A stretch of 32,000 nt of DNA from Candidatus Hermodarchaeota archaeon (GTDB lineage Archaea > Asgardarchaeota > Heimdallarchaeia > Hodarchaeales > Hodarchaeaceae): NCBI GenBank assembly GCA_048886185.1, contig JBHLKY010000007.1, forward strand, positions 30,001-62,000, read 5' to 3'. Shown here one piece after another: positions 1,014 to 30,579 of this stretch. A program made the position numbers and the translations under genes. The notes under the pieces were generated by a model that was given only the letters and a program-made list of their open reading frames with translations, did not search any database and was not told the origin of the DNA. Within the stretch, counting starts at the first letter, position 1, and every line of letters starts with the position of its first letter.

Positions 1014-2048
1014 TTAGAAAGCATTGAGATCTATATGTTCTTTCACTAATTTCTCTAATAGATTAATTTTCTCTGTTTCATCCTTGGTGAACATTATCTG
1101 CATATCATCAATTTGTTTAGCAGTAGCAAAGGTATCAGTGGAGACCAATAGTAAGGGGATGTTTGCCATATTAGCTTTTGATTCGATAATTGGATCAGCA
1201 GGTAGAATATTGTTTGTTAGTACAATCCCAGCTGTAGATGACTCCAAAGCTGCTATAATCATATCTGGCCTATCACCAGGGGTGATAATTAATTTATTCT
1301 CCAATGCCCAGAGGGGTCGTTTAATGACTTGAGCAGCAGACATGGCTCCAACGAAAATATGTTCGACTTTATTATCTAATCCTTTCTCTCCTGCGAGTAC
1401 CTTGGCAAATATGGTCTCGTATAAGTACGCCATTGAAAACTGAGTCAGCTCTTTTTGATAAGGAATTATCCCTAGAACATTAACACCAAGTTCTTTAATA
1501 GAATCTAAATAGAGATCCTTAAAGTTCTCGACATCTTTAATCTTGTTGATAATAACACCTATCAATTCGATGTCTTTAGTGTCAACACAGTTCACCAAGA
1601 AAGTAATCTCATCAATAATCTTTTCAGCTGGACCACTGAGGATGAGTAGAAGTTCTGCACCAATATTTCTCGCTACTGTTAAAGCATCAAGATGTACTGA
1701 AAGCCCATAATTCAAGTTCTTACTGCCTTCAATAAGGACAATTTCTTTATCTTTCCCTACATTTTTTAATAATTCAATTAGCTTTTCTTTCGTTGATGCT
1801 TTATCATACATAAAGCGTAATTTAGAATGTGCAAAACCAATTGAAATGTTTTCAGGTTGTTCTTCTAACCCTAAAATGTTAGTGACTAACGCTGAATCAT
1901 AATCCCACAAACGTTTCTTCTGATAAAGAAGATGGTCACCGAAAGGTTTCATATATCCAATTTTTTTATTTAGAGCTTTAGCCAAGCCAATAATTAAGCT
2001 AGTTTTACCAGCTCCTTCGTCTGTACTTGCAATAACAATTTTTTTCAT
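1014..2048 (-). CDS. phosphotransacetylase-N-terminus-like protein (BioD-like AAA_26 + DRTGG domains), no catalytic PTA domain
   Basis: N-terminal P-loop 'STDEGAGKTS', 'GYMKPFG', 'IEG', and DRTGG motif variant 'ITPGDRPD'. Protein ends at 344 aa without a PTA_PTB domain. ATG directly abuts the upstream stop and is preceded by GAGGTG. Confidence 0.88.
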   Translation of the reverse strand: MKKIVIASTDEGAGKTSLIIGLAKALNKKIGYMKPFGDHLLYQKKRLWDYDSALVTNILGLEEQPENISIGFAHSKLRFMYDKASTKEKLIELLKNVGKDKEIVLIEGSKNLNYGLSVHLDALTVARNIGAELLLILSGPAEKIIDEITFLVNCVDTKDIELIGVIINKIKDVENFKDLYLDSIKELGVNVLGIIPYQKELTQFSMAYLYETIFAKVLAGEKGLDNKVEHIFVGAMSAAQVIKRPLWALENKLIITPGDRPDMIIAALESSTAGIVLTNNILPADPIIESKANMANIPLLLVSTDTFATAKQIDDMQIMFTKDETEKINLLEKLVKEHIDLNAF

Positions 2049-4253
2049 TTAAATCACCTCTTTTTTTGAGGGGGGAGTGAGTAAAATTCGAGCATCAACA
2101 CATAAAACTCCTCTACCTTTTTCAAATACTAAACAAGGATTGATTTCAATATCTGAAATATCCAGTATTGATTGAATAACCTTACCTAGCTTCATGACAA
2201 CATCAACACAGCCTTCAATATCCTTCCTTGCCTCACCTCTAACTCCCAATAATAGTGGGTATGAGCGTATCTGTTTAACCATTTTATTTGCATCCCTCCA
2301 GGTCAGGGGTACTGCTCTGAAAGCAACATCTTTTAATACTTCAACATAAATACCACCCAGACCGAACATAACGGTTGGTCCAAAAATCGCATCTATACGT
2401 GCCCCAATAATGGTTTCTAACGCTTCATCCATTTTTATCATTGTGACAATTTCAACGCCTTGTAATAATGCATCTGGTTTGTAATTATGACAAGATCTCA
2501 TTATAGCTTCATATGCGTCAATTACCTCTTCTCTATTTTCCAAGTTGAGAGCCACACCACCCGCGTCTGATTTATGGATTATATCTTTAGAAACAATTTT
2601 CATTACAACTGGATAACCAATCTCTTCAGCATATTGAATAGCTTCTTTGAGATCCTTAGCAATATAGCTTTTAGGCATAGGTATATCAGCTGCTTCCATT
2701 ACCCGCATTGCTTCAGAAACTAATAAGAACTGCCTCCCATCCTTTCTGACCTCATTAATCACTTTCTGGATAGTTGCTATATCGATTTTTACTTCATCTT
2801 CATCAAGTTCCTCATTATCGGTTGCATAAGTTAAGGTTCGATAATTTGAATAGACAGCACCCAAACATGATACAGCTTGATAAACATCTGGAAAAATTGG
2901 TACACCTAAACTTTTAAGGCCAAAAAGACCTCTTTCAAATTCAGAACCACCGAAAAAAGAGAAAACCAACGGTTTAGCAGGTTTTGTCTCTATAAATTTT
3001 CTTTCAACGACTGCTGTTAACTGATTACAATCAAAAATAGCGGTTTCACAGCCTAAACATATAATAGAATGAATATCATCACTATCTAAAGCTGCCTGCA
3101 AAGCTTGCTCATAAAATTCATTTGATGCGCCCCCAGTGATATCTACGGGGTTCTTTGTTGATCCAAAAGATGGTGTAACTGGCCCGAAGATTTCAGTAAG
3201 GACTTCTTGATCATCGTACAGATTAATTCTATACATCTCACATGCATCTGTTGCAAGAACGCCTATACCACCCCCGTTTGTTACAATAACGGTATTTTCC
3301 CCTTTTGGCAGATCTGTTTGAATGGATAAAAACTTTGCCCAATCCAGAGCTTCCTGTACACTTAATGCCCTGAGAGCTCCAACTTGATTAATAATATCGG
3401 AAAATACATTATCCTCACCTGCTAGAGAACCTGTATGAGAAGCAGCTGCGAGTGCGCCCCTTTTAGATCTTCCTGATTTGATGATTATTATTGGTTTTAT
3501 CTTAGTTGCCTGTCTGAGAACATGAATTAGTTTTTCCCCCTCTTTAATACCTTCAATGTAAAGCAAGATGACCTTTGTTAACTCATCAGACATTAAATAC
3601 TCAATAAGATCAGCTTCATCAATGTCTGACTTATTTCCAACAGAAACGATAGCTGAGAGACCAATGCCTTCTGTTTCTGTCTTTCCTATCATTGCAACAC
3701 CCAATGCGCCACTTTGAGTCACAATTGCAACTGAACCAGGTTCAATGTCCTTTGCACCAAAAGTTGCGTTTATTGGTGATTTATTTGAATAAATTCCGAA
3801 AATATTAGGGCCTAGAACACGCATCCCATTCGCATGAGCAAATCTGACGATTCTATTTTCCTCTTCAATATCTCCAATTTCAGAAAAGCCTGATGTGATA
3901 ATAGAAAGGAATTTACAGTTTTTTGTAGCTAATTCCTGCACAGCATCAAAAACATATTCTGAAGGAATGCAAATTGTCGCAAGATCTATATCTCCATCAA
4001 TTTCGTCAATTGATCTGTATAACCGATGTCCTAGGATTTGACCCCCTTTTGGATTAATAGGATAAATCGTGCCCTGGTACTTGCTATAGACTATATTATC
4101 AAGAACTTTATATCCAATCTTATTCGGATTTGTTGAACATCCTACAATTGCGACAGAGCGAGGTTCAAAGAGATATTTGATTGATGGAACTGTAGTTTTA
4201 TTGGGACTTTCCTGCAATTTCCTATAAACCACCAGCAATAATCCTGTGATCAA
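2049..4253 (-). CDS. ADP-forming acetate/acyl-CoA synthetase, fused alpha-beta
   Basis: CoA-binding domain (FEPRSVAIVG, IYPINPKG), 'GPNIFG', 'QSGALG', phospho-His loop 'ASHTGSLAG', 'KNPVDITG', and ATP-grasp region 'GYPVVMKIVSKDIIHKSDAGGV'. The start may be the in-frame TTG at 4217 rather than 4253. Confidence 0.92.
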   Translation of the reverse strand: MITGLLLVVYRKLQESPNKTTVPSIKYLFEPRSVAIVGCSTNPNKIGYKVLDNIVYSKYQGTIYPINPKGGQILGHRLYRSIDEIDGDIDLATICIPSEYVFDAVQELATKNCKFLSIITSGFSEIGDIEEENRIVRFAHANGMRVLGPNIFGIYSNKSPINATFGAKDIEPGSVAIVTQSGALGVAMIGKTETEGIGLSAIVSVGNKSDIDEADLIEYLMSDELTKVILLYIEGIKEGEKLIHVLRQATKIKPIIIIKSGRSKRGALAAASHTGSLAGEDNVFSDIINQVGALRALSVQEALDWAKFLSIQTDLPKGENTVIVTNGGGIGVLATDACEMYRINLYDDQEVLTEIFGPVTPSFGSTKNPVDITGGASNEFYEQALQAALDSDDIHSIICLGCETAIFDCNQLTAVVERKFIETKPAKPLVFSFFGGSEFERGLFGLKSLGVPIFPDVYQAVSCLGAVYSNYRTLTYATDNEELDEDEVKIDIATIQKVINEVRKDGRQFLLVSEAMRVMEAADIPMPKSYIAKDLKEAIQYAEEIGYPVVMKIVSKDIIHKSDAGGVALNLENREEVIDAYEAIMRSCHNYKPDALLQGVEIVTMIKMDEALETIIGARIDAIFGPTVMFGLGGIYVEVLKDVAFRAVPLTWRDANKMVKQIRSYPLLLGVRGEARKDIEGCVDVVMKLGKVIQSILDISDIEINPCLVFEKGRGVLCVDARILLTPPSKKEVI

Positions 4254-4370: not shown

Positions 4371-6290
4371 TTAAAAATGCATTCTTAACTCATAAACTCC
4401 ATTAGTAATTCTCTTACTGAGATCTGGGAAATTAATTTCAAACAAATGAAGCATATCCCGATTTTCTACAAGAACCTCTGCTGTAAATCCTAACAAACCA
4501 GTTGTTCTAGCCAAATAAGTAATATATTTTATCATTTCAGTCCCAATCCCCATATTTTGATGATCATCTTTAACCACAAAAGCTACTTCCGCGGTATGGG
4601 TAGATTCATCTATTCCATATTGTGAAATCCCTACAATTTTTTCTAATGCGCCTTTTTTTGTTACTGCTACAATAACCATTTCTTTTGAGAAGTCTATTAT
4701 ACAAAATTCTTGTAAGCGAGCATGGGGTACATCTTTTCGGACTGACATGAACCGTCTATACATTGATTGATCAGTTAAATCATAGAAGAAGTCTTTAAGT
4801 AGTGGTTCATCACTTATCTTAACTGGTCGGAGTAATATCTCAACTCCTTTTCTAGTAGTTCTCCATGTTTCTAAGTGCTCTGGGTATTCACCTTTCTCAC
4901 CAGGGACAAATGCTTGATCTTTATAGACTAGATTGAATTCTTTTGCTTTTTGAATCAATATTGATCTAAATTTAGGATGAGCAATGGATATTAGTTGCAT
5001 AGCCCGCTCCCGGATATTCTTTCCATGAATATAAGCAATTCCAAATTCAGTAACAACATAATGAATATCTCCACGATTTAGGGTAACACCCGCTCCTTCT
5101 GAGAGGAATGGAACAATTCGGGAAATAGTTCCACTAGTTGTTTCAGCAGTAGATTGAAGCATTAATATTGATTTACCTCCCTTAGCCAGAATAGCACCGC
5201 GCATGAAGTCCGCCTGTCCTCCAATTCCGCTATAAAAGGTTCTACCTATTGATTCTGCTGATGCCTGTCCTGTGAGGTCTATTTGTAGGGCACTATTGAT
5301 AGCTGTTATGTTATCATGACGAGCAATGATTAAAGGATTATTTGTATAATCAATTACCTTGAACTCGATTGCAGGATTATCATGAATATAATCATAAGTC
5401 TCCTTTCTCCCCATACAGAAAGAAGCGACTGTTTTTCCTCGGTTAATTGTCTTTTGTGTATTATCAATTACACCTTGCTTCATTAAATCAACAAGACCAT
5501 CTGAGATTAATTCTGTGTGAACTCCGAGATGTTCTTTATCACGCAGATTCGCCATCACAGCGTCAGGAATTGAACCATAGCCAACCTGAATAGTATTACC
5601 ACTTTGAATGAGGCGAGAAACATAGTTCCCAATCTTTGCCACATTTTTAGCGTATAAATCTTCGTCTGTAGGGACTGGATTATACTCAAGAATCGGTTCA
5701 TCATAAGGCACTAAATAATCAATATCTTCAATATGGATGAATCCATCACCATGAACTCGGGGCATGTATGAGTTAATCTGGGCTATAATTAACGATGCAT
5801 TCTCTATTCCAGCTTTAACAATATCAACTGAGACTCCTAGATTAAGATAACCATGAACATCAGGAGGAGAACATTGAATCAAAGCAACATCAACAGGGAC
5901 ATGCCCATGGAAAAATAAACTTGGCGTATTAGACAAAAATACTGGAGTATAATCAGCTAATCCTTGATTAACAGAATTTCTGGTTGGTGTTGCGATGAAA
6001 AATGAGTTATATCGAAAATTTCTTTGGTAGCGTATATCAGCATAGGGTGCGACTCCTAAATTCCACCAGGATAATACTTCAGTATCAAAAAATGCCTTAG
6101 GATGTGATTCTAAGTAGGCCGCAAGAGCTTTTATTAGGTATTGAGGTTCAGCACAAGCACTCGAGACAAATATTCGATCCCCTCGATGGATATTTTGAAA
6201 AATTGCTTTTTCTGATGCAAATTTTTGAGGAAAAGTCTGCCTTAGTTCCTCATATTTTTTATTATTACCACTCAAAGACACCAGACACAC
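4371..6290 (-). CDS. acetyl-CoA hydrolase/CoA-transferase (4-hydroxybutyrate CoA-transferase type) fused to a C-terminal GNAT domain
   Basis: 'IHRGDRIFV', 'QVGYGSIPDA', catalytic 'GVHTELISDG', 'SGIGGQADF', 'VVTEFGIA'. Last ~170 aa are a GNAT domain ('LLRPVKISDE...SMYRRF', 'EVAFVVKDDHQNMGIGT'). Confidence 0.9.
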   Translation of the reverse strand: MCLVSLSGNNKKYEELRQTFPQKFASEKAIFQNIHRGDRIFVSSACAEPQYLIKALAAYLESHPKAFFDTEVLSWWNLGVAPYADIRYQRNFRYNSFFIATPTRNSVNQGLADYTPVFLSNTPSLFFHGHVPVDVALIQCSPPDVHGYLNLGVSVDIVKAGIENASLIIAQINSYMPRVHGDGFIHIEDIDYLVPYDEPILEYNPVPTDEDLYAKNVAKIGNYVSRLIQSGNTIQVGYGSIPDAVMANLRDKEHLGVHTELISDGLVDLMKQGVIDNTQKTINRGKTVASFCMGRKETYDYIHDNPAIEFKVIDYTNNPLIIARHDNITAINSALQIDLTGQASAESIGRTFYSGIGGQADFMRGAILAKGGKSILMLQSTAETTSGTISRIVPFLSEGAGVTLNRGDIHYVVTEFGIAYIHGKNIRERAMQLISIAHPKFRSILIQKAKEFNLVYKDQAFVPGEKGEYPEHLETWRTTRKGVEILLRPVKISDEPLLKDFFYDLTDQSMYRRFMSVRKDVPHARLQEFCIIDFSKEMVIVAVTKKGALEKIVGISQYGIDESTHTAEVAFVVKDDHQNMGIGTEMIKYITYLARTTGLLGFTAEVLVENRDMLHLFEINFPDLSKRITNGVYELRMHF

Positions 6291-6694
6291 TCCAATTTAT
6301 AAAATAATAAAGATTTATTATATCAAATCATTACTGTTTTTAAAAGTGAATTTAAGCTATATGATAGTCTTCAATGTGACAATTTAAAGAGACACATTTA
6401 ACAATTATGAACTTTTGTAACTTTGTACATCCCTTTTTATATCATAAATGACTCAATACTACAAAAAGATCATATTTTCGTCTAGTTAAGTGGCAAGTCA
6501 AGATCTTTAATTGTATATGGGAACAAACAGAACATATAATGTCTTATTATTAAAAGAAAATTAATGATTTAATAAGTATGACGAAAAAGTGTATATTAAA
6601 GGATTCGATATAAGTGCATTAATATAGATTTATGTCGAACAAGGTACAGGGCTCAGTAAAAATTCAGAATTAGATCAATAATTATGTTCTTATT

Positions 6695-7840
6695 TTATCC
6701 CTGACCGGGGAAAAAAGTCATATTACCCCCACAGAAGAGACAGTTTTTAACCCCTTGTTCCTTCATTTCATTATAACAATTTACACATATGCCCCTAAAA
6801 CAATTAGAACATTGATAGTGGGCTAGGGAAAACGACAAATCTTCATTGTGGACTTCACAATGGTATTTATCAGAACCAATAATTAAAACATCATCATCTA
6901 TGGTGTCATAAGTGCCTCCTGTTTCGATGAATCCTTGGAGTGATTGACGACTAATTAATCGACTTATAATTTCGTGAGTTAAACCAACCTCTAGATTTGC
7001 TATCTTAGCTATTCTTTGAATAGGAATCTGGCTGTTTTCTTCTACTTCATATAGAGTTGAAATTGAATCGATAACCAACTTCTCATTTTCACTTATTGAT
7101 TTCTCATGCTTTCGATAGTCTAAATAGTTCTGGGTTTTAGTCTTTAGTGAAGAGTATGATATCCTATCTCTTAGTTTTAACGACTTGAAATCGTCAATAA
7201 CTCTCCTTGAAACCGTTTTAATTCCTTGTCGCGACATGTTATACCTTTGAACCTTGTAATATTCACCTAATGATGTTTTTAGGTCCTTTGGATTGTAAAT
7301 CGATTGAACGTCCGATTCTTTGAATATTCGAGGAACTGGAACAAGAGACCCATTACAATAAGGACAAGTATTTGTATTTCCTTTTTGATAACAATCGCTG
7401 CAGATGAAACGGAGGCAACGGGTACATTGAAAGTGAAGTTCAAAAACGTCATGTTCCATCTGGTCGATCTGACAGAAAAAGAAGTCCTGATGGAGGACGA
7501 GGGTATCATCACTAATATCATCGGGAGTTTTATTCCCTTCAATATAGCCCTCGATTAGCCGTTGTTCAATGAATTCTTGGATTATAAAAATAACGTCGTT
7601 TTTAGGTAGTTCTACTTGTTCTGCGATAGCAGCAATCCCTATTCGCCCTTTGTGGATTTTATTAAGATTCCCAATAGCAATGAATGTTCGCTTGATCGGA
7701 TGGGTCGAGATTTTATATTCTTGGTCAAAATTTTGAAATTGATCAACTTCATCTTCGACTCTCTTCCGTAGTGATGCCTTGACTCGATCTGTAAAGCTTT
7801 CATTGGGATTTGGCACTTTATATTCCCTGCTATTATTCAT
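6695..7840 (-). CDS. hypothetical protein with two tandem [PCI-like winged helix + RING-like Cys-rich zinc finger] units
   Basis: Internal duplication at aa ~50-168 and ~255-378. Each unit has 'I.I..IA....L.......II...I....(I/L).G(Y/F)IE' followed by C-x2-[D/H]-x12-C-x2-C-x4-C-x2-C-x(8/11)-C-x2-C. Confidence 0.75.
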   Translation of the reverse strand: MNNSREYKVPNPNESFTDRVKASLRKRVEDEVDQFQNFDQEYKISTHPIKRTFIAIGNLNKIHKGRIGIAAIAEQVELPKNDVIFIIQEFIEQRLIEGYIEGNKTPDDISDDTLVLHQDFFFCQIDQMEHDVFELHFQCTRCLRFICSDCYQKGNTNTCPYCNGSLVPVPRIFKESDVQSIYNPKDLKTSLGEYYKVQRYNMSRQGIKTVSRRVIDDFKSLKLRDRISYSSLKTKTQNYLDYRKHEKSISENEKLVIDSISTLYEVEENSQIPIQRIAKIANLEVGLTHEIISRLISRQSLQGFIETGGTYDTIDDDVLIIGSDKYHCEVHNEDLSFSLAHYQCSNCFRGICVNCYNEMKEQGVKNCLFCGGNMTFFPGQG

Positions 7841-8239
7841 CCATTCGGAATTATCACAAAATTTCTAAAATGTGAGCTGTATTTCAGATATATTCACGTT
7901 TTAAGAAATATTGGCCATTATTTAAAGATTATAGTAGGACCGAAAATATATCTTTTCAGACACAATATGATAAAATGGTTACATTCAATAATTCAAAGAA
8001 TATAAAATTTACTTTAGAGGAGGATTAATTGAAATAAAAAATGTATATGCCTGTTTTTATATTTTCAGTATAATTACAGGATTTATCTAGCATGCTTGTC
8101 CTTGGTTTTATGTCTATAACTATTCTTACAGTGATACTTGTAGTTGTTAAATAAAAAAAACAGGGATTAATATGTAGATAAACCTAAACTTAGGAATCTT
8201 CATATTATAAAGATTTACCCAAAACTCAAGGAAGAATAA

Positions 8240-8365
8240 ATGTACTGCCCTCGCTGTCGTTTCCAAGGTAAAATAGTTAAAATGAAATCTTCTAAACGTA
8301 GTTTTCACAAGAAAATTAAATGGTTATGTCCTGATTGCGGATTAGTGAGAATGGAAAAACAATGA
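8240..8365 (+). CDS. 41-aa zinc-finger microprotein (CPxC...CPxCG)
   Basis: Manually translated: MYCPRCRFQGKIVKMKSSKRSFHKKIKWLCPDCGLVRMEKQ*. It has two CxxC knuckles and a purine-rich AAGGAAG upstream. It is too short for the supplied ORF track. Confidence 0.7.
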   Translation: MYCPRCRFQGKIVKMKSSKRSFHKKIKWLCPDCGLVRMEKQ

Positions 8366-8408
8366 GAATCTCTATTTCCTTTAACATATTGTAAGGTGTA
8401 ATTTCGAA

Positions 8409-9350
8409 TTGAATATTTCTTTAGGTATTTCATTTGCATATTCAAGATTCATGTCTCAAGAGAATATTATGATAAAGTTTCAGGAAATCAAAAAGAAGGA
8501 GATAAATGCAATTGAATTTGGATTACTTAATTGTGTCCTTGGTACGTCAAATATCCCTGGTACTGTTCCTTACCCATCTGAAAAACAAATAAATTTGATT
8601 TCTGATGTAGTTCCCTCTGATCAATACTATCTTTCGATTCATGCCCCCTACCGTATTTCTGCCACATCAGAGGATCCCAAGAAAATTCAATACTCGAAAT
8701 CAAATCTATCTAAGTCATTATTAATTGCTGATTGGCTTGGAGCTCATCATGTGACTTTTCATGGCGGTAGCTTCAAGCGAAAGCACGAGAATGCTCGTGT
8801 CAAAAAAGTATTGGAGGACTGGGAAGCTTGGAGGCAACATAAGGAGTATAATGCGAAGATGGCTCCAGAAGTAGGGGGGAAGTACAATTCTTTTGCTGAT
8901 TTCTTCACACTAATTGAGATTGCAGGAACCATTAACAATTGTCTTATCACATGGGACATCAGTCATGATTTCGCCCGAGGCGGTAATATTACGACCGAGG
9001 GTGGTGTTTTGAATAGACTCAATCTCCTTGATCAAACATTTGATCTAAATAAAGATAATCGTTTACCAATACACTTTTCGGGGATGATTGTGGGGAAAAC
9101 AGGAGAGAAACATCACACTCTTTTAGATCATGGGACGGGAGTACCTTGGAAACTTGTTTTCTCGGTTTTAAAAGAACAAAATTACTTAGATAAAGTTAGT
9201 ATGATCTGTGAAAGTAAGGTTCCTAAGAAAGAAAAGTTTATGGGAAATTCCTTATCAGATGTAATTCGTGTGAGAGAGTTTCTTGAATCTGATGAGCTTG
9301 TAAAGACTTACAAAGGAAAACCTGGTTATTTAGACTATTACTTCAAATGA
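8409..9350 (+). CDS. nfo: endonuclease IV / AP-endonuclease family 2 TIM-barrel protein
   Basis: Metal-ligand motifs 'SIHAPY', 'VTFHGG', 'APEVGGK', 'WDISHDFAR', 'IHFSG', 'HHTL', 'ICES'. True start may be the ATG at 8451. Confidence 0.75.
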   Translation: MNISLGISFAYSRFMSQENIMIKFQEIKKKEINAIEFGLLNCVLGTSNIPGTVPYPSEKQINLISDVVPSDQYYLSIHAPYRISATSEDPKKIQYSKSNLSKSLLIADWLGAHHVTFHGGSFKRKHENARVKKVLEDWEAWRQHKEYNAKMAPEVGGKYNSFADFFTLIEIAGTINNCLITWDISHDFARGGNITTEGGVLNRLNLLDQTFDLNKDNRLPIHFSGMIVGKTGEKHHTLLDHGTGVPWKLVFSVLKEQNYLDKVSMICESKVPKKEKFMGNSLSDVIRVREFLESDELVKTYKGKPGYLDYYFK

Positions 9351-11382: not shown

Positions 11383-12363
11383 ATGAAATGGAAGATTATA
11401 AGATTGAGTACAGACCATAATCAAAGACTTGGATTTGGTAGATATGGGAAAACTACCCATGGTAGAGAAGAATCTCGTGAAAGTCGGAAGACTAAGACTA
11501 AAAGGCAATTAAAGGAAGTCACAATAACTGAAGCTAAAAATCAACTTCTAGCTACTGGAGAAATACAACAAGTCCTTGCAGTAATTGGTGGTGGTAAAGA
11601 GGCAACTATTCTTCTCGCTGAAAATACAGAAGAAGAATTAGTTTGTGCTAAGGTTTTCCGATATTTTACAAGTACAATCAGGAAGCGCCTTCGTGGGACG
11701 ATACATCTACTTGCTGATGATATGGCAGCTTTAGCTGCAAAACAGGAGTACTGGAATCTACATGAATTGTTTAACAGAAATATTCCTGTACCCGAACCAC
11801 GATTACTCACCAATAATATTGTTATCATGGAATTTATTGCTGAAGAAATAGGATCAACAACTCCTGCTCCTCTTCTTCGTGAAGTAAACCTGACTTATTA
11901 TGATCCAGAAGAGCTATTATATGATTCAATTGACATTCTGGCAAATTTATTTCTAGAAGGTCACTTTATTCATGGAGATTATAGTGAACATAACCTCATG
12001 CTTACTCAGAAGGGGATACTCTTTACAATGGACGTTTCTCAGTCGGTTCAATATAACAGGAAGACCTTCATCAATACTCCTTTACGAATCAGAATTGACA
12101 AAGCTATAGATCTCCTTGAAAAAGATATTCACAACATTAATCAATATTTTAAGAGAGTTTACAAAATATCTGTCAATCCTGATGAAGTAATAGAAACCAT
12201 TATTAAAGAATTACCCCAACATTTGCAGGATTTCTTGAATAAAAAGACTATGCAGATTTATCCCTCCACTATGTATTCTCCCAAAATATATTTGGGGAAG
12301 GAAGGATATCGTGATGAATTAGTCTTTCAGAGAACGGGTAAAAGTCGTCAACGACCAAAATAG
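11383..12363 (+). CDS. rio1: RIO1-family atypical protein kinase/ATPase
   Basis: P-loop 'GGGKEA', 'CAKVFR', 'EYWNLHEL...IPVPEP', hinge 'IMEFI', catalytic loop 'IHGDYSEHN', metal-binding 'MDVSQSV'. Confidence 0.85.
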   Translation: MKWKIIRLSTDHNQRLGFGRYGKTTHGREESRESRKTKTKRQLKEVTITEAKNQLLATGEIQQVLAVIGGGKEATILLAENTEEELVCAKVFRYFTSTIRKRLRGTIHLLADDMAALAAKQEYWNLHELFNRNIPVPEPRLLTNNIVIMEFIAEEIGSTTPAPLLREVNLTYYDPEELLYDSIDILANLFLEGHFIHGDYSEHNLMLTQKGILFTMDVSQSVQYNRKTFINTPLRIRIDKAIDLLEKDIHNINQYFKRVYKISVNPDEVIETIIKELPQHLQDFLNKKTMQIYPSTMYSPKIYLGKEGYRDELVFQRTGKSRQRPK

Positions 12364-12402
12364 GAGATTGAAAAAATTAGGAATGTTTGGTGAGTTGGAA
12401 TA

Positions 12403-12615
12403 GTGAAATCGCGAAGAAAAGAGTCTGAAATGGAAACAAATTGTCATATTTCTGATCAGATTTCAATATTCATTAATTTAAAAACGAAGAATGATTTTTT
12501 TGATAAACTATATACAACACCTCTAAGTAAGGTAGAAGAGGATGAAATATTCATTTATATTATCAAAGCTCAAGAAATAGTCACAAAATGGAATGAAGGA
12601 CAAATAGAAGAATAA
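12403..12615 (+). CDS. small hypothetical protein
   Basis: 70-aa ORF (or 61 aa from ATG 12430) fills the gap between co-oriented genes. No recognisable motif. Confidence 0.45.
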   Translation: MKSRRKESEMETNCHISDQISIFINLKTKNDFFDKLYTTPLSKVEEDEIFIYIIKAQEIVTKWNEGQIEE

Positions 12616-12635
12616 CACCTGAAATAGGAGAAGAA

Positions 12636-13460
12636 ATGATAATGAATTTTGAAAAAATTAGCGAACACCTTATCTGGACGGATGTAGGATATGGAAATAG
12701 CATAGCCATTGATTTAGGAGGAAAAATTTTTGTGATTGATTCTATGTTGAATTGGGAGCTTGCTGCAGAATGGAGAAAGGTGATTGAACAATATTTTGAT
12801 AGTTATCTCTCTGGATTGATTCTCACTCATCACCACTGTGATCACACTTTTGGAAACCAGGTTTTTTCTGATTTACCAATCATCTCGAGCTTTGAAATAA
12901 GAAGGATAACAACTGAATTTGAAAAAAACATATGGAATGTTCAAACTCCAGATGACTTGGATGAATGGGAAGCAGGAGGATATGGGGTAAAGGATCTTCA
13001 GTTAACACATTCTAATGTTTGTTTTGTAAATAAACTTTATTTATATGGAAGGAGGACATTAGAGCTTATTCAAGCTGATGGCCATACTAGTGGTAGTACG
13101 TACTTATGGGAACCTGAAACTAGAACGTTGATTGCTGGCGATTTAATCTTCAATAAGCAGTTTCCTTATGGGGGAGATGAAACATGTGATATAATGAAAT
13201 GGCAAAAGGTTATTGAGGATTTAATAACTCTGGAACCCAAAATTATCATTAGTGGTCATGGCCCTGCAGCCACAACCGATGATCTTGATGAAATTAATGA
13301 TTTTTTTGCCAGATGTATTGATTATATGAAAAATAAATCTATTGATGCTCTAAGAGTTGAGAAAATAGCACAAGATTCTGATTTTCCAGAATATTATTCT
13401 CATGATCGTTTGGAACGGAAAAAAATATCGATAGAACGTTGGATTGAATTTTTCAAGTAA
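12636..13460 (+). CDS. MBL-fold metallo-hydrolase (cyclase/glyoxalase II-like)
   Basis: 'VIDS', 'THHHCDHTFGN', 'GHTSG', 'IAGDL', 'ISGHG'. AGGAG upstream. Confidence 0.9.
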   Translation: MIMNFEKISEHLIWTDVGYGNSIAIDLGGKIFVIDSMLNWELAAEWRKVIEQYFDSYLSGLILTHHHCDHTFGNQVFSDLPIISSFEIRRITTEFEKNIWNVQTPDDLDEWEAGGYGVKDLQLTHSNVCFVNKLYLYGRRTLELIQADGHTSGSTYLWEPETRTLIAGDLIFNKQFPYGGDETCDIMKWQKVIEDLITLEPKIIISGHGPAATTDDLDEINDFFARCIDYMKNKSIDALRVEKIAQDSDFPEYYSHDRLERKKISIERWIEFFK

Positions 13461-13481
13461 GAATAAGATAGGAAATAAAGT

Positions 13482-14456
13482 ATGAGCTCAATTAAACTTG
13501 TAACAAATCTTCATAACTGGGCTGAATTGAATTTAGACGATTTAGCTGAATTTTCATTTAAGGCGAGACAATCCAGGCCTGAAACTTTTAATAATAAGCG
13601 TACCCTTGAACGAGAAAGAAGAATAATTAACCTACAAAAACAATTTTCACCTTCTTTTGTTGTAGTTACCAGTAAAGGGAATAAGATGCTTGGGTGGTTA
13701 TCCTTTGATTTAGAATCTCCTAATAAGGTTGAAATTGGGAGATGGCTTCCAGCTGTTCTTGAAGGAGAAGAAGAAGATGAAGTACTTGCTGCGCTTATTG
13801 AGGCCTCTAAAGATTATTGCAGAAAGATACATTATTCTAGACTAGAAGTTTCGTTTAACATTCGGGATCAAGGGGAGAGGCAGGCATATAAAATCTATAG
13901 AAGATGGTATGAGGCACATAACGTGCGAATCAAAGATGAAGTAATCTATATGTTTCGCAATCTTTCTGAGAATGATAATACTGGGATTTCCACCCCTGAA
14001 GCATTTGAAACAAAATCAATTTCGGAAATCAATGACGATGAATTGTATCTCTGTTATCATGAGGCATTCACTAAATCAAAAAATCGTATCTTTCAAGATC
14101 AAACTGAATCTGAACGTCGTGACTATTTTTTTGACTATTACAGTAAATCGAAGCCTTTCATCAAAGAAGCATCTCTTGTCCTTAAGAAATTAAAAAAGCG
14201 AGCAATTATCGGTGTGACAGTGGTACGTCCGAGAGGAGGTGATGCTCATCTATCTCTTCTGGCTATTCATCCAGATTATCAAAGAAGAGGATTAGGTAAA
14301 TTTTTGCTGAAATTAGTCATCAAACGGGTATTTAAACAAGGATTCAAATCAATTAGTCTCGGCGTCGACATAGAAAATCCGGCTATAATACTTTATCAAA
14401 AGGTAGGATTCGTTTCAACTTCTCACATAATAACTCATTCTTGGAAAACTAAATAG
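13482..14456 (+). CDS. tandem-GNAT acetyltransferase
   Basis: C-terminal GNAT with 'LAIHPDYQRRGLGK' and 'AIILYQKVGF'. The N-terminal half resembles a second, degenerate GNAT. Confidence 0.82.
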   Translation: MSSIKLVTNLHNWAELNLDDLAEFSFKARQSRPETFNNKRTLERERRIINLQKQFSPSFVVVTSKGNKMLGWLSFDLESPNKVEIGRWLPAVLEGEEEDEVLAALIEASKDYCRKIHYSRLEVSFNIRDQGERQAYKIYRRWYEAHNVRIKDEVIYMFRNLSENDNTGISTPEAFETKSISEINDDELYLCYHEAFTKSKNRIFQDQTESERRDYFFDYYSKSKPFIKEASLVLKKLKKRAIIGVTVVRPRGGDAHLSLLAIHPDYQRRGLGKFLLKLVIKRVFKQGFKSISLGVDIENPAIILYQKVGFVSTSHIITHSWKTK

Positions 14457-14494
14457 AGCAATATAAAAAGCTATTTTTCTAGGAGAAACAGTCA

Positions 14495-15652
14495 TTGAAA
14501 ATAAAAGAACTCAAATTTAATGATTTTCATATAGTTCGTTCCTTATTCACTAAATCGGAACATCTTGAGTTCACTATTGATGCCGTTATTGCAGGAAATA
14601 GTCCAATGCATATTTGGGTGGATGAAACTACCGCTCCTAAAAGTGCATTCTTATGGGATAAATCCCACTGTTATTATCTTGTTGGAGAGACTGAAAATAG
14701 TGAATTCTGTGAAGCAATTACAACATTATTATATGATACAATAATGCCTGATGTAATTGCTAGGAACCATGATATTTTTAAAATCGAGTATTTCCCAAAT
14801 GAATGGGAGCCTATTCTTGAGGAAATTTTAAGAGAAAAGTGTCCTATCAAAGCTCACCGTAAATTTTTCATTCTGGATAGACCCCTGATCTCTCAATGGA
14901 AAGATATTGTACCATCTGACTTTAGTATCCAGAAAATTGATAGAACTCTCCTTGAAAGCGATATTGAAAATGTAAATACAATTATTGATGAAATAAAACT
15001 ATGTTGGCAATCTGTTGATGATTTTTTACAGAAGGGTTTTGGTTTTTGTTTGATTCATACCCTTAAAGAAAGGAAAGAAGTTCAAGGTTGGTGTACAGGC
15101 GAGTATTTTAGTGAAGGTAAGTGTGGAATTGGTATTGAAACCTTTCAAGGCTATCAAAAAAGGGGATTTGGAACTGCAATGGCTTTAGCTTATGTAGAAC
15201 ATAGTTTATCAGTCAAAATTCAGCCATATTGGGATGTTTCTACGAATAATGACGCTTCTATACGTGTAGCAAAAAAAGTAGGTTTTAAAAAGATTCAAGA
15301 TTATACTGTATTTCTTGGTTCGTTCACTAATATTGAAAGTTTTCAAGGTAATCATTACTATCAGGAAAAGGATTACGAGAAAGCAGCTAAATGGTATGAA
15401 AAAGCTGCAAAGTCAGATCAAAGGAAATTCTATAACTACTATAATGCTGCTTGTTCTTGGGCATTAAATGGGAACATTGACTCGGCTCTAAACAACCTCA
15501 ATAAATCACTCGATTTCATGGACAAGTCCCTAAAACAATTTATCGATCGTATGAAACGAGATACTGATTTGGTAAATTTATATGGAACAAAGGGGTGGAA
15601 AAATTTTCTTAAACGATTGAATGACATTGAGAAAGGAACCAAACAGAATTAG
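14495..15652 (+). CDS. GNAT acetyltransferase with C-terminal TPR-like domain
   Basis: 'GFGFCL', 'GIGIETFQGYQKRGFGT', 'PYWD...N.ASIRVAKKVGF', then 'AAKWYEKAA...YYNAACSWALNGNIDSALNNLNKSL'. TTG start preceded by AGGAG. Confidence 0.82.
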   Translation: MKIKELKFNDFHIVRSLFTKSEHLEFTIDAVIAGNSPMHIWVDETTAPKSAFLWDKSHCYYLVGETENSEFCEAITTLLYDTIMPDVIARNHDIFKIEYFPNEWEPILEEILREKCPIKAHRKFFILDRPLISQWKDIVPSDFSIQKIDRTLLESDIENVNTIIDEIKLCWQSVDDFLQKGFGFCLIHTLKERKEVQGWCTGEYFSEGKCGIGIETFQGYQKRGFGTAMALAYVEHSLSVKIQPYWDVSTNNDASIRVAKKVGFKKIQDYTVFLGSFTNIESFQGNHYYQEKDYEKAAKWYEKAAKSDQRKFYNYYNAACSWALNGNIDSALNNLNKSLDFMDKSLKQFIDRMKRDTDLVNLYGTKGWKNFLKRLNDIEKGTKQN

Positions 15653-15665
15653 GAGGTTAAAATCT

Positions 15666-16268
15666 TTGGATAAGATGTTACTTGAGTTACCCTCAATATT
15701 AGAAACAAAAAGGTTAGTTCTACGACCATACCAAGCAGGTGATGGTTTACATTTCCTAGCAATGTTGGAACGGAATAGAAAATATTTAGCAGAGCTCCTT
15801 GGACCAATAACGGAATCAACAGAAATCAATGAGATTGAAATCTTCTTGCGGAAATTAGCAGCAGATTGGGTTGCACGTAATCGATTCGTTTTAAGTTTCT
15901 GGGAAAAATCCTCATTAAAATACCTCGGTCATATTTGGATTGAACCACTTGATTGGAGAATACCTAATTTTGAAATGGGCTGGTTTATTGATAAGGAGTA
16001 CCAAGGAAGAGGGTTTACTACTGAAGCTGCCAAAGCGGCAATCCTTTTTATATTTAAGAATATGAATGCTAATAAAATTACTGTTAGGGTAAGAAAACAT
16101 GGCTCTTATTACGAGAAAAGTAAAGAAATTGCTAAGAGATGTGGTTTCATTGAGGAAGGGATTCTTCGTAATTCTGTAAGAACTCATTGCGATAATATAC
16201 TAGTAAATGAAATATACTTTGGCCTTCTTAAAGAAGAAATGAAAGATCTCTTAAAATTGAGTCAATAA
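15666..16268 (+). CDS. RimJ/RimL-type GNAT acetyltransferase
   Basis: 'LETKRLVLRPY', 'EMGWFIDKEYQGRGFTTEA', 'AKRCGFIEEG'. Start placed at the in-frame TTG 15666, 9 nt after AGGAGG, which removes the 32-bp overlap in the ORF track call (15621). Confidence 0.85.
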   Translation: MDKMLLELPSILETKRLVLRPYQAGDGLHFLAMLERNRKYLAELLGPITESTEINEIEIFLRKLAADWVARNRFVLSFWEKSSLKYLGHIWIEPLDWRIPNFEMGWFIDKEYQGRGFTTEAAKAAILFIFKNMNANKITVRVRKHGSYYEKSKEIAKRCGFIEEGILRNSVRTHCDNILVNEIYFGLLKEEMKDLLKLSQ

Positions 16269-29862: not shown

Positions 29863-30579
29863 ATGGAGTCACTAGATAAAAACATTATCATTACGGTTCT
29901 CACAGGAGCAGGCTTCTCCCAAGCTTCTGGAATTCCAACTTTCCGAGGAAAGAATGGACTCTGGAAGAACTACGATCCTTCTGATTTAGCTACTCCCAGT
30001 GCATTCGCAAGGGATCCTGAACTTGTGTGGGAATGGTACAAATGGCGTTTAAAGGTTGTTTTAAATGCAGCTCCCAATCCTGCGCATTTAATTCTAGCTG
30101 AAGTTGAGAAAAAAGGTTTTGATATAGTTATTTTAACTCAGAATGTAGATGATCTTCATGAAAGAGCGGGTTCTGGTAATGTTATTCATTTTCATGGAGA
30201 GATCCGTGAAGCAAGATGTGTCAGTTGTGGGAGAATGTTTACATGGACAATAGAACTCCTTTCTACTGTTGGTGATATCCCAAAATGTGAGACCTGTGGT
30301 TCATTCTATCGTCCTAATGTTGTGTGGTTTGGAGAGGGATTGGACAGAAAAGTAATTCAAACAAGTATTGATCGATTGTCTTCAACAGATATATTAATAG
30401 TAGCTGGGACATCAGGAGTGGTATATCCAGTAGCTGAGTTTCCATTCCTTGCTAAAAGCCAAAATCCCTTGGTAAAAATCTTTGAATTCAATCTCGATTA
30501 TACTCCAATTTCCAGTATCGCATCCCAAATATTTCTAGGTCCAGTAGAAAAAACACTTCCTAATTACTTTTCAAGCTGA
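29863..30579 (+). CDS. cobB: NAD-dependent protein deacylase (sirtuin, class III/CobB-like)
   Basis: 'TGAGFSQASGIPTFRG', 'TQNVDDLHERAG', 'HFHG', CxxC...CxxC zinc site, 'RPNVVWFGE', 'GTSGVVYP'. YxxR ('WEWYKWR') is the desuccinylase-type motif. Confidence 0.93.
   Translation: MESLDKNIIITVLTGAGFSQASGIPTFRGKNGLWKNYDPSDLATPSAFARDPELVWEWYKWRLKVVLNAAPNPAHLILAEVEKKGFDIVILTQNVDDLHERAGSGNVIHFHGEIREARCVSCGRMFTWTIELLSTVGDIPKCETCGSFYRPNVVWFGEGLDRKVIQTSIDRLSSTDILIVAGTSGVVYPVAEFPFLAKSQNPLVKIFEFNLDYTPISSIASQIFLGPVEKTLPNYFSS

Follow-up and report, generated by a model that had tools for sequence, protein, structure and literature searches.

A protein with two winged-helix and RING-like zinc-finger units in one genus-level clade of Hodarchaeales and its possible role as an E3-like adaptor

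We analyzed a 32,000-nucleotide stretch of DNA (hereafter the window) from a Candidatus Hermodarchaeota archaeon, positions 30,001 to 62,000 of contig JBHLKY010000007.1 (assembly GCA_048886185.1), which is contig 7 of a 4.84-Mb genome that is 96% complete. The gene under study lies on the minus strand at 6695..7840 of the window and encodes, as an open frame of 381 amino acids (aa) from an ATG at 7840, a protein with two winged-helix/RING-like-finger units. Database records and homologues start at residue 9 of this frame, and the start is probably the GTG at 7816, as in the homologues, which gives 373 aa; residues are numbered here on the 381-aa frame. The two halves of the protein are homologous. 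Residues 17-170 aligned to residues 224-378 with a local self-alignment score of 159, compared with 30.9 ± 4.9 (maximum 47) for 200 shuffles, which bears out the two homologous units noticed in an earlier reading made from the letters of the DNA alone (hereafter the sequence-only reading). In each unit, a finger with eight ligands follows a winged helix.

All features of the protein are encoded on the minus strand. A long N-terminal helix, modelled with low confidence (residues 16-44, 7709..7795), precedes winged helix 1 (residues 48-116, 7493..7699) and finger 1 (residues 117-170, 7331..7492). Directly after finger 1, the family alignment (22 members, 48-100% identity to the 381-aa protein) shows a P-V-P-R-I-F-K motif (residues 168-174, 7319..7339), in which every position is invariant except R171, conserved in 90% or more. 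The linker that follows (residues 171-247, 7100..7330) is partly helical at low model confidence, and its 77 residues are strongly basic, with a family mean net charge of +10. Winged helix 2 (residues 248-321, 6878..7099) and finger 2 (residues 322-381, 6698..6877) complete the protein, which ends in a T-F-F-P tail. The whole-protein model (predicted local distance difference test score, pLDDT, 68; predicted template modelling score 0.34) showed no confident packing of the two units. A Foldseek search with this model listed MarR, TFIIE-alpha, UFL1-DDRGK1, NSE1 and cullin-Rbx1 at expectation values (E) of 0.003-0.1, and this list was taken as domain hints only. Rfam gave no match over the whole window. 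A promoter and terminator scan of positions 6200-8450 used bacterial-type signals and is uninformative for an archaeon.

The ligand pattern of both fingers is well defined. Finger 1 reads C123-x2-D126-x3-H130-x8-C139-x2-C142-x4-C147-x2-C150-x8-C159-x2-C162, and finger 2 reads C328-x2-H331-x12-C344-x2-C347-x4-C352-x2-C355-x11-C367-x2-C370. Each finger has eight zinc ligands in four pairs, with Asp as ligand 2 (and a His at +4) in finger 1 and His as ligand 2 in finger 2, and the protein is predicted to bind four zinc ions. The sixteen ligands named in the sequence-only reading were all found at their positions, and both fingers have the same x2-x12-x2-x4-x2 spacing but differ in the length of the last loop (x8 in finger 1, x11 in finger 2). 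Across the 22 aligned members, C123, D126, H130, C139, C142, C147, C150, C159 and C162 were invariant in finger 1. The same was true in finger 2 of H341 together with C328, H331, C344, C347, C352, C367 and C370, with C355 kept in 90% or more.

The same finger was present in about 80 more clusters, and the ten looked up were unnamed or named Hodarchaeales/Heimdallarchaeota. Its usual form in this wider family is C-Q-x-D-x3-H-P-x-T-[DE]-x-A-Y-Q-C-x2-C-x-R-x-[IV]-C-x2-C-Y-x(8-9)-C-P-x-C, in which the Arg between ligands 4 and 5 is nearly invariant and Asp is the commonest ligand 2. Among fingers outside the twin-unit family, a ligand-2 Asp was paired with a His at +4 in 54 of 63 cases, and a ligand-2 Cys was paired with that His in 1 of 22. 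Because the Asp is coupled to this His, the Cys-x2-Asp-x3-His arrangement appears to be a conserved alternative predicted zinc site and not decay. The earlier suggestion that finger 1 may have diverged at this ligand was thus not upheld. Proteins that carry the finger as a C-terminal addition include TPR proteins, WD40/LVIVD proteins with a membrane helix, winged-helix arrays and double zinc ribbons. RING-type ubiquitin ligases (E3s) are likewise C-terminal add-ons to recognition-type architectures. In other Hodarchaeales, Mrr-type restriction endonuclease domains and a NACHT-associated inactive endonuclease domain were also seen with the finger as a C-terminal addition.

The fold class of the finger was investigated by profile and by model. 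With the unit profile searched against PDB sequences, the best match over the finger was the plant cellulose-synthase (CesA) N-terminal RING (E 3e-5), and the next were melanophilin and the UHRF, RING1B, TRIM32, BRE1 and NOT4 RINGs, at about 1e-3 to 7e-3. The model of unit 2 (residues 240-381; pLDDT 89.6), built from a 47-row alignment of units from many proteins, provided the structural comparison. Its finger aligned in Foldseek to the CBP and p62 ZZ domains (TM by target 0.6-0.7 over 58-60 columns) and also to the TRAF6, RNF4 and c-Cbl RINGs, and an Atlas search with the same model returned a zf-RING_2 cluster and a ZZ cluster among the matches for the finger. These profile and model matches place the fingers in the predicted binuclear cross-brace class (RING/ZZ), nearest to C4C4 RING variants. 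The VIA-align lists were filled by winged-helix matches, and their Z-scores cover the winged helix and not the finger; a Protein-Atlas feature search with finger 1 reached a best score of 0.79, below the meaningful level. No curated Pfam RING, ZZ, FYVE or B-box model reached its cut-off. The RING-like finger of the sequence-only reading consequently stands as a matter of fold, with cross-brace matches to RINGs and ZZ domains, and falls short in the curated RING models, all of which scored below cut-off. Chain a of PDB entry 9fhl ('aS34', 72 aa) was also matched by the unit profile over the finger (E 0.0015).

Comparison with known fingers showed differences from each. The CesA C4C4 RING (PDB 1WEO, 8VI0; Pfam zf-UDP) shares the layout C-x2-C ... 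C-x2-C-x4-C-x2-C-Y ... G-x3-C-P-x-C, whereas the finger described here has Asp plus His, or His, for the second Cys and follows a winged helix. The zf-UDP model matched 6 of 59 relatives, all weakly. Canonical RINGs follow the pattern C-x2-C-x(9-39)-C-x(1-3)-H-x(2-3)-C-x2-C-x(4-48)-C-x2-C. The fingers of canonical RING E3s (c-Cbl, RNF4, TRAF6, RING1B) and of the archaeal RING E3s from Caldiarchaeum and Helarchaeia ubiquitin operons resemble ours in having eight ligands, a helix that begins at ligands 5-6, C-P-x-C at ligands 7-8 and, between ligands 1 and 2, a hydrophobic residue, but the spacing between ligands 4 and 5 is 4 here and 2-3 there, and ligand 4 is Cys and not His. A spacing of 4 with Cys as ligand 4 is known only from C4C4 variants such as CesA and NOT4. 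The ZZ domain (PF00569; CBP/p300, p62, Ada2) shares the close ligand-4-to-5 spacing and the Y-x-C-x2-C core, and differs in its last ligand pair, which is His-His in ZZ and Cys-Cys here, and in the nearly invariant Arg of the present family.

Two conserved positions bear on the possible function of the finger. RING E3s (c-Cbl, RNF4, others) contact the ubiquitin-conjugating enzyme (E2) through, among others, a hydrophobic residue at C1+2 and a Pro at C7+1. Among 155 distinct fingers, C1+2 was hydrophobic in 96%, and C7+1 was Pro in 83% of those outside the twin-unit family and in every finger 1. The RING-like positions of finger 1 are I125, P160 and N163, position 163 being Lys or Asn in most homologues. 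In finger 2, Leu, Ile or Met replaces the loop-2 Pro (Leu in the 381-aa protein), and the residue after the last Cys is mostly Gly. The conserved I/L/V at C1+2 and the Pro at C7+1 are only suggestive of E2 binding. A co-fold of finger 1 (residues 111-176, two Zn) with an E2 encoded in a ubiquitin gene cluster of the same genome gave a score of 0.00, which is below the mark and counts neither way.

The winged helices were assigned with differing confidence as to fold and subtype. Winged helix 1 is acidic with an acidic wing, and is PCI-type by its Pfam PCI stretch and its model; winged helix 2, also acidic, is PCI/DDRGK1-type by the unit model and the fold searches. Over the whole protein, the Pfam PCI (PF01399) score of 30.7 bits exceeds the cut-off of 22 but is a sum of two stretches, one per unit, which alone reach 19.9 and 18.8 bits and are below the cut-off, and the match covers only model positions 29-74 of 84. 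In VIA, the unit-2 winged helix matched Rpn6 (Z 9.3), DDRGK1 (Z 8.9), CSN2 (Z 8.9) and CSN4 (Z 8.8), and the likeness to PCI domains (Rpn6, CSN2, CSN4, eIF3c) and to DDRGK1/UFL1 spans Z 8.7-9.3 overall. Identity was 13-22% to these winged helices and 8-14% to DNA-binding winged helices in the same list. PCI proteins headed the Foldseek list for unit 2, the Atlas search returned CSN2, CSN3, CSN4, eIF3c and DDRGK1 clusters, and the unit profile matched DDRGK1/UFL1 among PDB sequences at 9e-4. The winged helices of ORC/Cdc6, ESCRT-II and kleisin score almost as high as the PCI-type ones. For this reason, the modelled winged-helix fold is certain and its PCI/DDRGK1-UFL1 subtype only probable. One or two helices stand before each winged helix, and the helical-repeat (TPR-like) subdomain of PCI proteins is absent. 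On the model, the units carry the winged-helix subdomain of PCI and not a complete PCI domain, so that the PCI-like winged helix of the sequence-only reading survives in the type of its winged helix, which leads the fold searches, and not in its helical-repeat part. Family mean net charges were -4.5 for winged helix 1 and -4.7 for winged helix 2, with wings rich in Asp and third helices of hydrophobic or acidic character. Such acidic winged helices argue against DNA binding.

The full-length family is narrowly distributed. It was found, in one copy per genome, in 18 of the 21 other genomes of the genus-level clade and in 0 of the 62 other genomes of the class, and the twin-unit family is confined to this one Hodarchaeales clade. 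Only two full-length clusters, plus fragments, were present among 1.8 billion cluster representatives, and the named homologues were Candidatus Hodarchaeales/Heimdallarchaeota.

The genome encodes six further proteins with this finger, on varied bodies (WD40 plus membrane helix, TPR, winged-helix arrays). A 587-aa paralogue, a winged-helix array with two RING-like fingers, is encoded on contig 8 of the same genome (G000), at 14034-15797. Residues 66-375 of the 381-aa protein are collinear with its residues 320-584 (hhalign 99.2%, E 9e-20; BLASTP E 2e-13), and the common order in both is winged helix, finger 1, spacer, winged helix, finger 2. By these alignments, the 381-aa protein is a lineage-specific paralogue of the C-terminal half of the 587-aa protein. 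Because the two are collinear, the two-unit layout is taken to be older than the divergence of their families, and it is not confined to the 381-aa protein; the sequence-only reading had known of no parallel for it. The two proteins also share a finger 1 of the CQxD type with a short last loop and a finger 2 with a long last loop. The 381-aa protein differs in lacking the N-terminal winged-helix array of ~320 aa, which in the 587-aa protein, a UFL1-like E3 candidate of Asgard archaea, carries a weak E3_UFM1_ligase match. In the paralogue, moreover, a zinc ribbon occupies the place of the basic helical linker, and the 381-aa protein is encoded outside the ubiquitin cluster. Both are candidate E3s. 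Neither matched any NCBIfam or PADLOC model.

The 587-aa gene belongs to a ubiquitin-ESCRT cluster (contig 8, 9759-17726; L015:5760-13727) composed of JAB, E2, a 263-aa unknown protein, a ubiquitin-like protein (Ubl; 11959-12288), the ubiquitin-activating enzyme (E1; ThiF; 12337-13569), a small zinc-ribbon open reading frame, the 587-aa protein, Band_7 and EAP30/Vps22-36. The order was conserved in two other metagenomic loci (L016, L017), and the 587-aa protein stands in the E3 slot of this conserved JAB-E2-Ubl-E1-ESCRT-II cluster. All 21 genomes of the genus encode it, and it also occurs in one neighbouring genus. E1, E2, ubiquitin-like and JAB genes, the ubiquitin-system components considered in the sequence-only reading, are all in the genome; four E2 genes pass the cut-off, and two ubiquitin-like proteins are encoded besides the cluster Ubl. 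PF09743 (E3_UFM1_ligase) had no match in the 381-aa protein, and PF25080 had none anywhere, controls included. No gene of the genome matched Pfam Ufm1, which leaves the assignment of the contig 8 cluster to a UFM1 system unsupported. Two further ubiquitin/E2 clusters were observed on contig 14 (34641-45573) and contig 1 (295215-298030), the former including a 114-aa open reading frame with a sub-threshold zf-RING_2 match.

Proteins of this kind are partly described. IPR018611 is the UFL1 entry. Asgard E3 proteins with IPR018611 were surveyed by Hatano et al. 2022 (PMC9192718), and UFL1-like E3 candidates and RING E3s in Asgard ubiquitin clusters are already published (PMC9192718; bioRxiv 10.1101/2023.07.25.550441; bioRxiv 10.1101/2020.10.19.343400), as are archaeal RING E3s in Caldiarchaeum and Helarchaeia ubiquitin operons (PMC5654768; bioRxiv 10.1101/2023.07.25.550441). 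Our literature search turned up no account of the finger family or its Cys-Asp-His site, of this finger combined with PCI-type winged helices, or of such a two-unit protein beside a Pat-type module.

The gene neighbourhood of the 381-aa protein was also investigated. The gene is on contig 7, away from the contig 8 ubiquitin cluster, and lies directly upstream of a three-gene module on the same strand. The module consists of an acetyl-CoA hydrolase/CoA-transferase fused to a Pat-type GNAT (639 aa, 4371..6290, minus strand), the downstream neighbour in most genomes; an ADP-forming acyl-CoA synthetase (734 aa, 2049..4253, minus strand); and a BioD-like/DRTGG protein (344 aa, 1014..2048, minus strand). 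The GNAT part matches mycobacterial Pat (E 4.5e-19), and the fusion was present in 19 of 21 genomes in the genus and 0 of 62 elsewhere; the module, like the twin-unit family, is confined to this genus-level clade. Six orthologue loci were taken from other assemblies (50-76% identity); at five of them, the gene stands right before the module with gaps of 57-176 base pairs, and the genes on its other side differ at every such locus. Within the genus set, the gene and the GNAT gene were adjacent in G000, G048, G049, G051, G053, G058, G063 and G068; in G064 and G065, 3-5 kb separate them. One relative of 551 aa, which is extended at its N terminus, is encoded beside V-ATPase genes instead. The link to the GNAT module is frequent, not obligatory.

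Other features were observed around these genes. A second CoA-transferase-GNAT paralogue (42% identity) is encoded on contig 1 (G000:C1:112317-114077); a finger protein lies 8.5 kb off, with unrelated genes between, and no link of the two is claimed. In the window, the 570-bp gap between the 381-aa gene and an AP_endonuc_2 gene contains a 41-aa open reading frame with CPRC...CPDC (8240-8365, plus strand) that is small and zinc-ribbon-like. A 784-aa protein (21402-23756, plus strand) has the best PCI match in the genome (37-40 bits) and a weak CofD-like N-terminal part.

We consider the best reading of the 381-aa protein, which we hold tentatively and at somewhat less than even confidence, to be that of an E3-like adaptor. 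It would be a soluble adaptor of two modules, each an acidic PCI/DDRGK1-UFL1-type winged helix joined to a binuclear cross-brace RING-family finger. Finger 1 may dock the charged E2 through the hydrophobic residue between ligands 1 and 2, the Pro after ligand 7 and the Lys or Asn after ligand 8. Finger 2, which has neither this Pro nor this Lys/Asn, may be its structural partner, as the inactive half of a RING pair is. Holding the target would fall to the winged helices together with the basic linker, and the likeliest target or partner would be the Pat-type acetyltransferase/acyl-CoA module, whose genes lie immediately downstream in most genomes. The link to ubiquitin conjugation made in the sequence-only reading is carried here by the paralogue, which has the same two units and sits in the E3 slot, and is not carried by the gene itself, which is not near ubiquitin genes.

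Several observations weigh against an E3-like adaptor. The cross-brace assignment rests on fold alignment, with the ligand pairing predicted, and the RING models of Pfam remain below cut-off (zf_RING-like 17.8 vs. 27, Prok-RING_2 14.2 vs. 22.4, Prok-RING_4 6.9 vs. 27). The ZZ fold match of the finger is about as good as the RING match, and ZZ domains are peptide binders that are not known to recruit E2s. Among solved proteins, the CesA RING is closest in sequence, and it is not known to act as an E3. Canonical zf-RING_2 proteins are present in the genome, one of them beside another E2/ubiquitin cluster, so the finger family is not needed for an E3 role. No ubiquitin-system gene was found near the 381-aa gene in any genome examined. 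The partnership with the GNAT module has its exceptions as well: the two are unlinked in G056, G061 and G062 have kept the 381-aa family protein but yielded no GNAT orthologue, and G059 has the module without the gene. Because all of these genomes belong to one genus-level clade, the synteny may partly reflect inheritance.

A non-catalytic zinc-finger scaffold is the main alternative, somewhat less probable than the adaptor. Its fingers would oligomerise or bind a peptide end, and the protein would be a regulatory or assembly subunit of the downstream enzymes with no role in conjugation. The cellulose-synthase RING, the best solved sequence match, has been proposed to mediate oligomerisation, and ZZ domains are among the best fold matches, although Pfam ZZ itself had no match and the RING-type E2-contact positions are conserved. 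The nearly invariant Arg between ligands 4 and 5 is a further point for a scaffold, at a position where ZZ domains have acidic peptide-binding residues. The genomic context is consistent with a subunit of the enzymes: at 12 loci, the gene is directly upstream of the CoA-transferase-GNAT, acyl-CoA synthetase and DRTGG genes on the same strand, with differing genes on the other side, and the GNAT part has its match in mycobacterial Pat. However, the closest paralogue is in the ubiquitin cluster, and the genomes in which either the protein (G061, G062) or the module (G059) occurs alone also argue against this reading.

We regard as improbable a winged-helix transcription regulator of the acetyl-CoA/GNAT operon, in which the fingers would be sensor or dimerisation domains. 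A gene position just ahead of metabolic genes that run in the same direction would suit such a regulator, as would the weak HTH_24 match of unit 2 (E 5e-4, 20.0 bits vs. a cut-off of 21.9), the MarR-, CRP- and IclR-type regulators also listed in generic fold searches, and the strong positive charge of the linker. Nevertheless, the winged helices are acidic family-wide, with the Asp-rich wings and the hydrophobic or acidic third helices described above, and their best-fold and highest-identity matches are the non-DNA-binding winged helices of PCI proteins and DDRGK1. The same module also occurs in membrane proteins and in the ubiquitin-cluster protein. Least probable, and in our view very doubtful, is the proposal of the sequence-only reading that the winged helices dock into a PCI-based assembly (lid-, CSN- or eIF3-like), for example with the 784-aa PCI protein, and couple it to ubiquitin-like conjugation: the winged helices are PCI-type, the 784-aa protein is the best PCI match of the genome, and in another genome (L010) 6.5 kb separate an orthologue from a 774-aa protein that matches PCI faintly, yet the helical-repeat subdomain is absent, two of the four PCI matches in the genome are in the 381-aa protein itself, the 784-aa gene is not adjacent and no MPN partner is nearby, such winged helices are also found outside PCI complexes in DDRGK1/UFL1 and ESCRT-II, and no tie to such an assembly was found.

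The E3-like adaptor reading has a stronger form, which we judge distinctly unlikely. An active adaptor would bring ubiquitin-like conjugation to the Pat-type lysine acetyltransferase/acyl-CoA module and, together with the 587-aa paralogue, would retain an arrangement in which a single E3 polypeptide contains both a UFL1/DDRGK1-type winged-helix scaffold and a RING-type finger. Few known archaea are as closely related to eukaryotes as Hodarchaeales, and the origin of RING-type and scaffold-type (UFL1) E3 ligases is not settled. The proteins described here show a lineage-specific expansion of a module of PCI/UFL1-type winged helix and RING-like finger, with one member in an E3 slot and one usually tied to an acetyltransferase/acyl-CoA module. 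Two small soluble proteins are thereby concrete candidates for E3 activity, and Cys-x2-Asp-x3-His is a defined non-canonical predicted zinc site. If the 381-aa protein is indeed an E3 adaptor on a Pat-type module, it would indicate crosstalk between ubiquitin and acetylation in the archaeal lineage nearest to eukaryotes. If it is inactive, the family would still show RING-like fingers as general interaction modules in Hodarchaeales.

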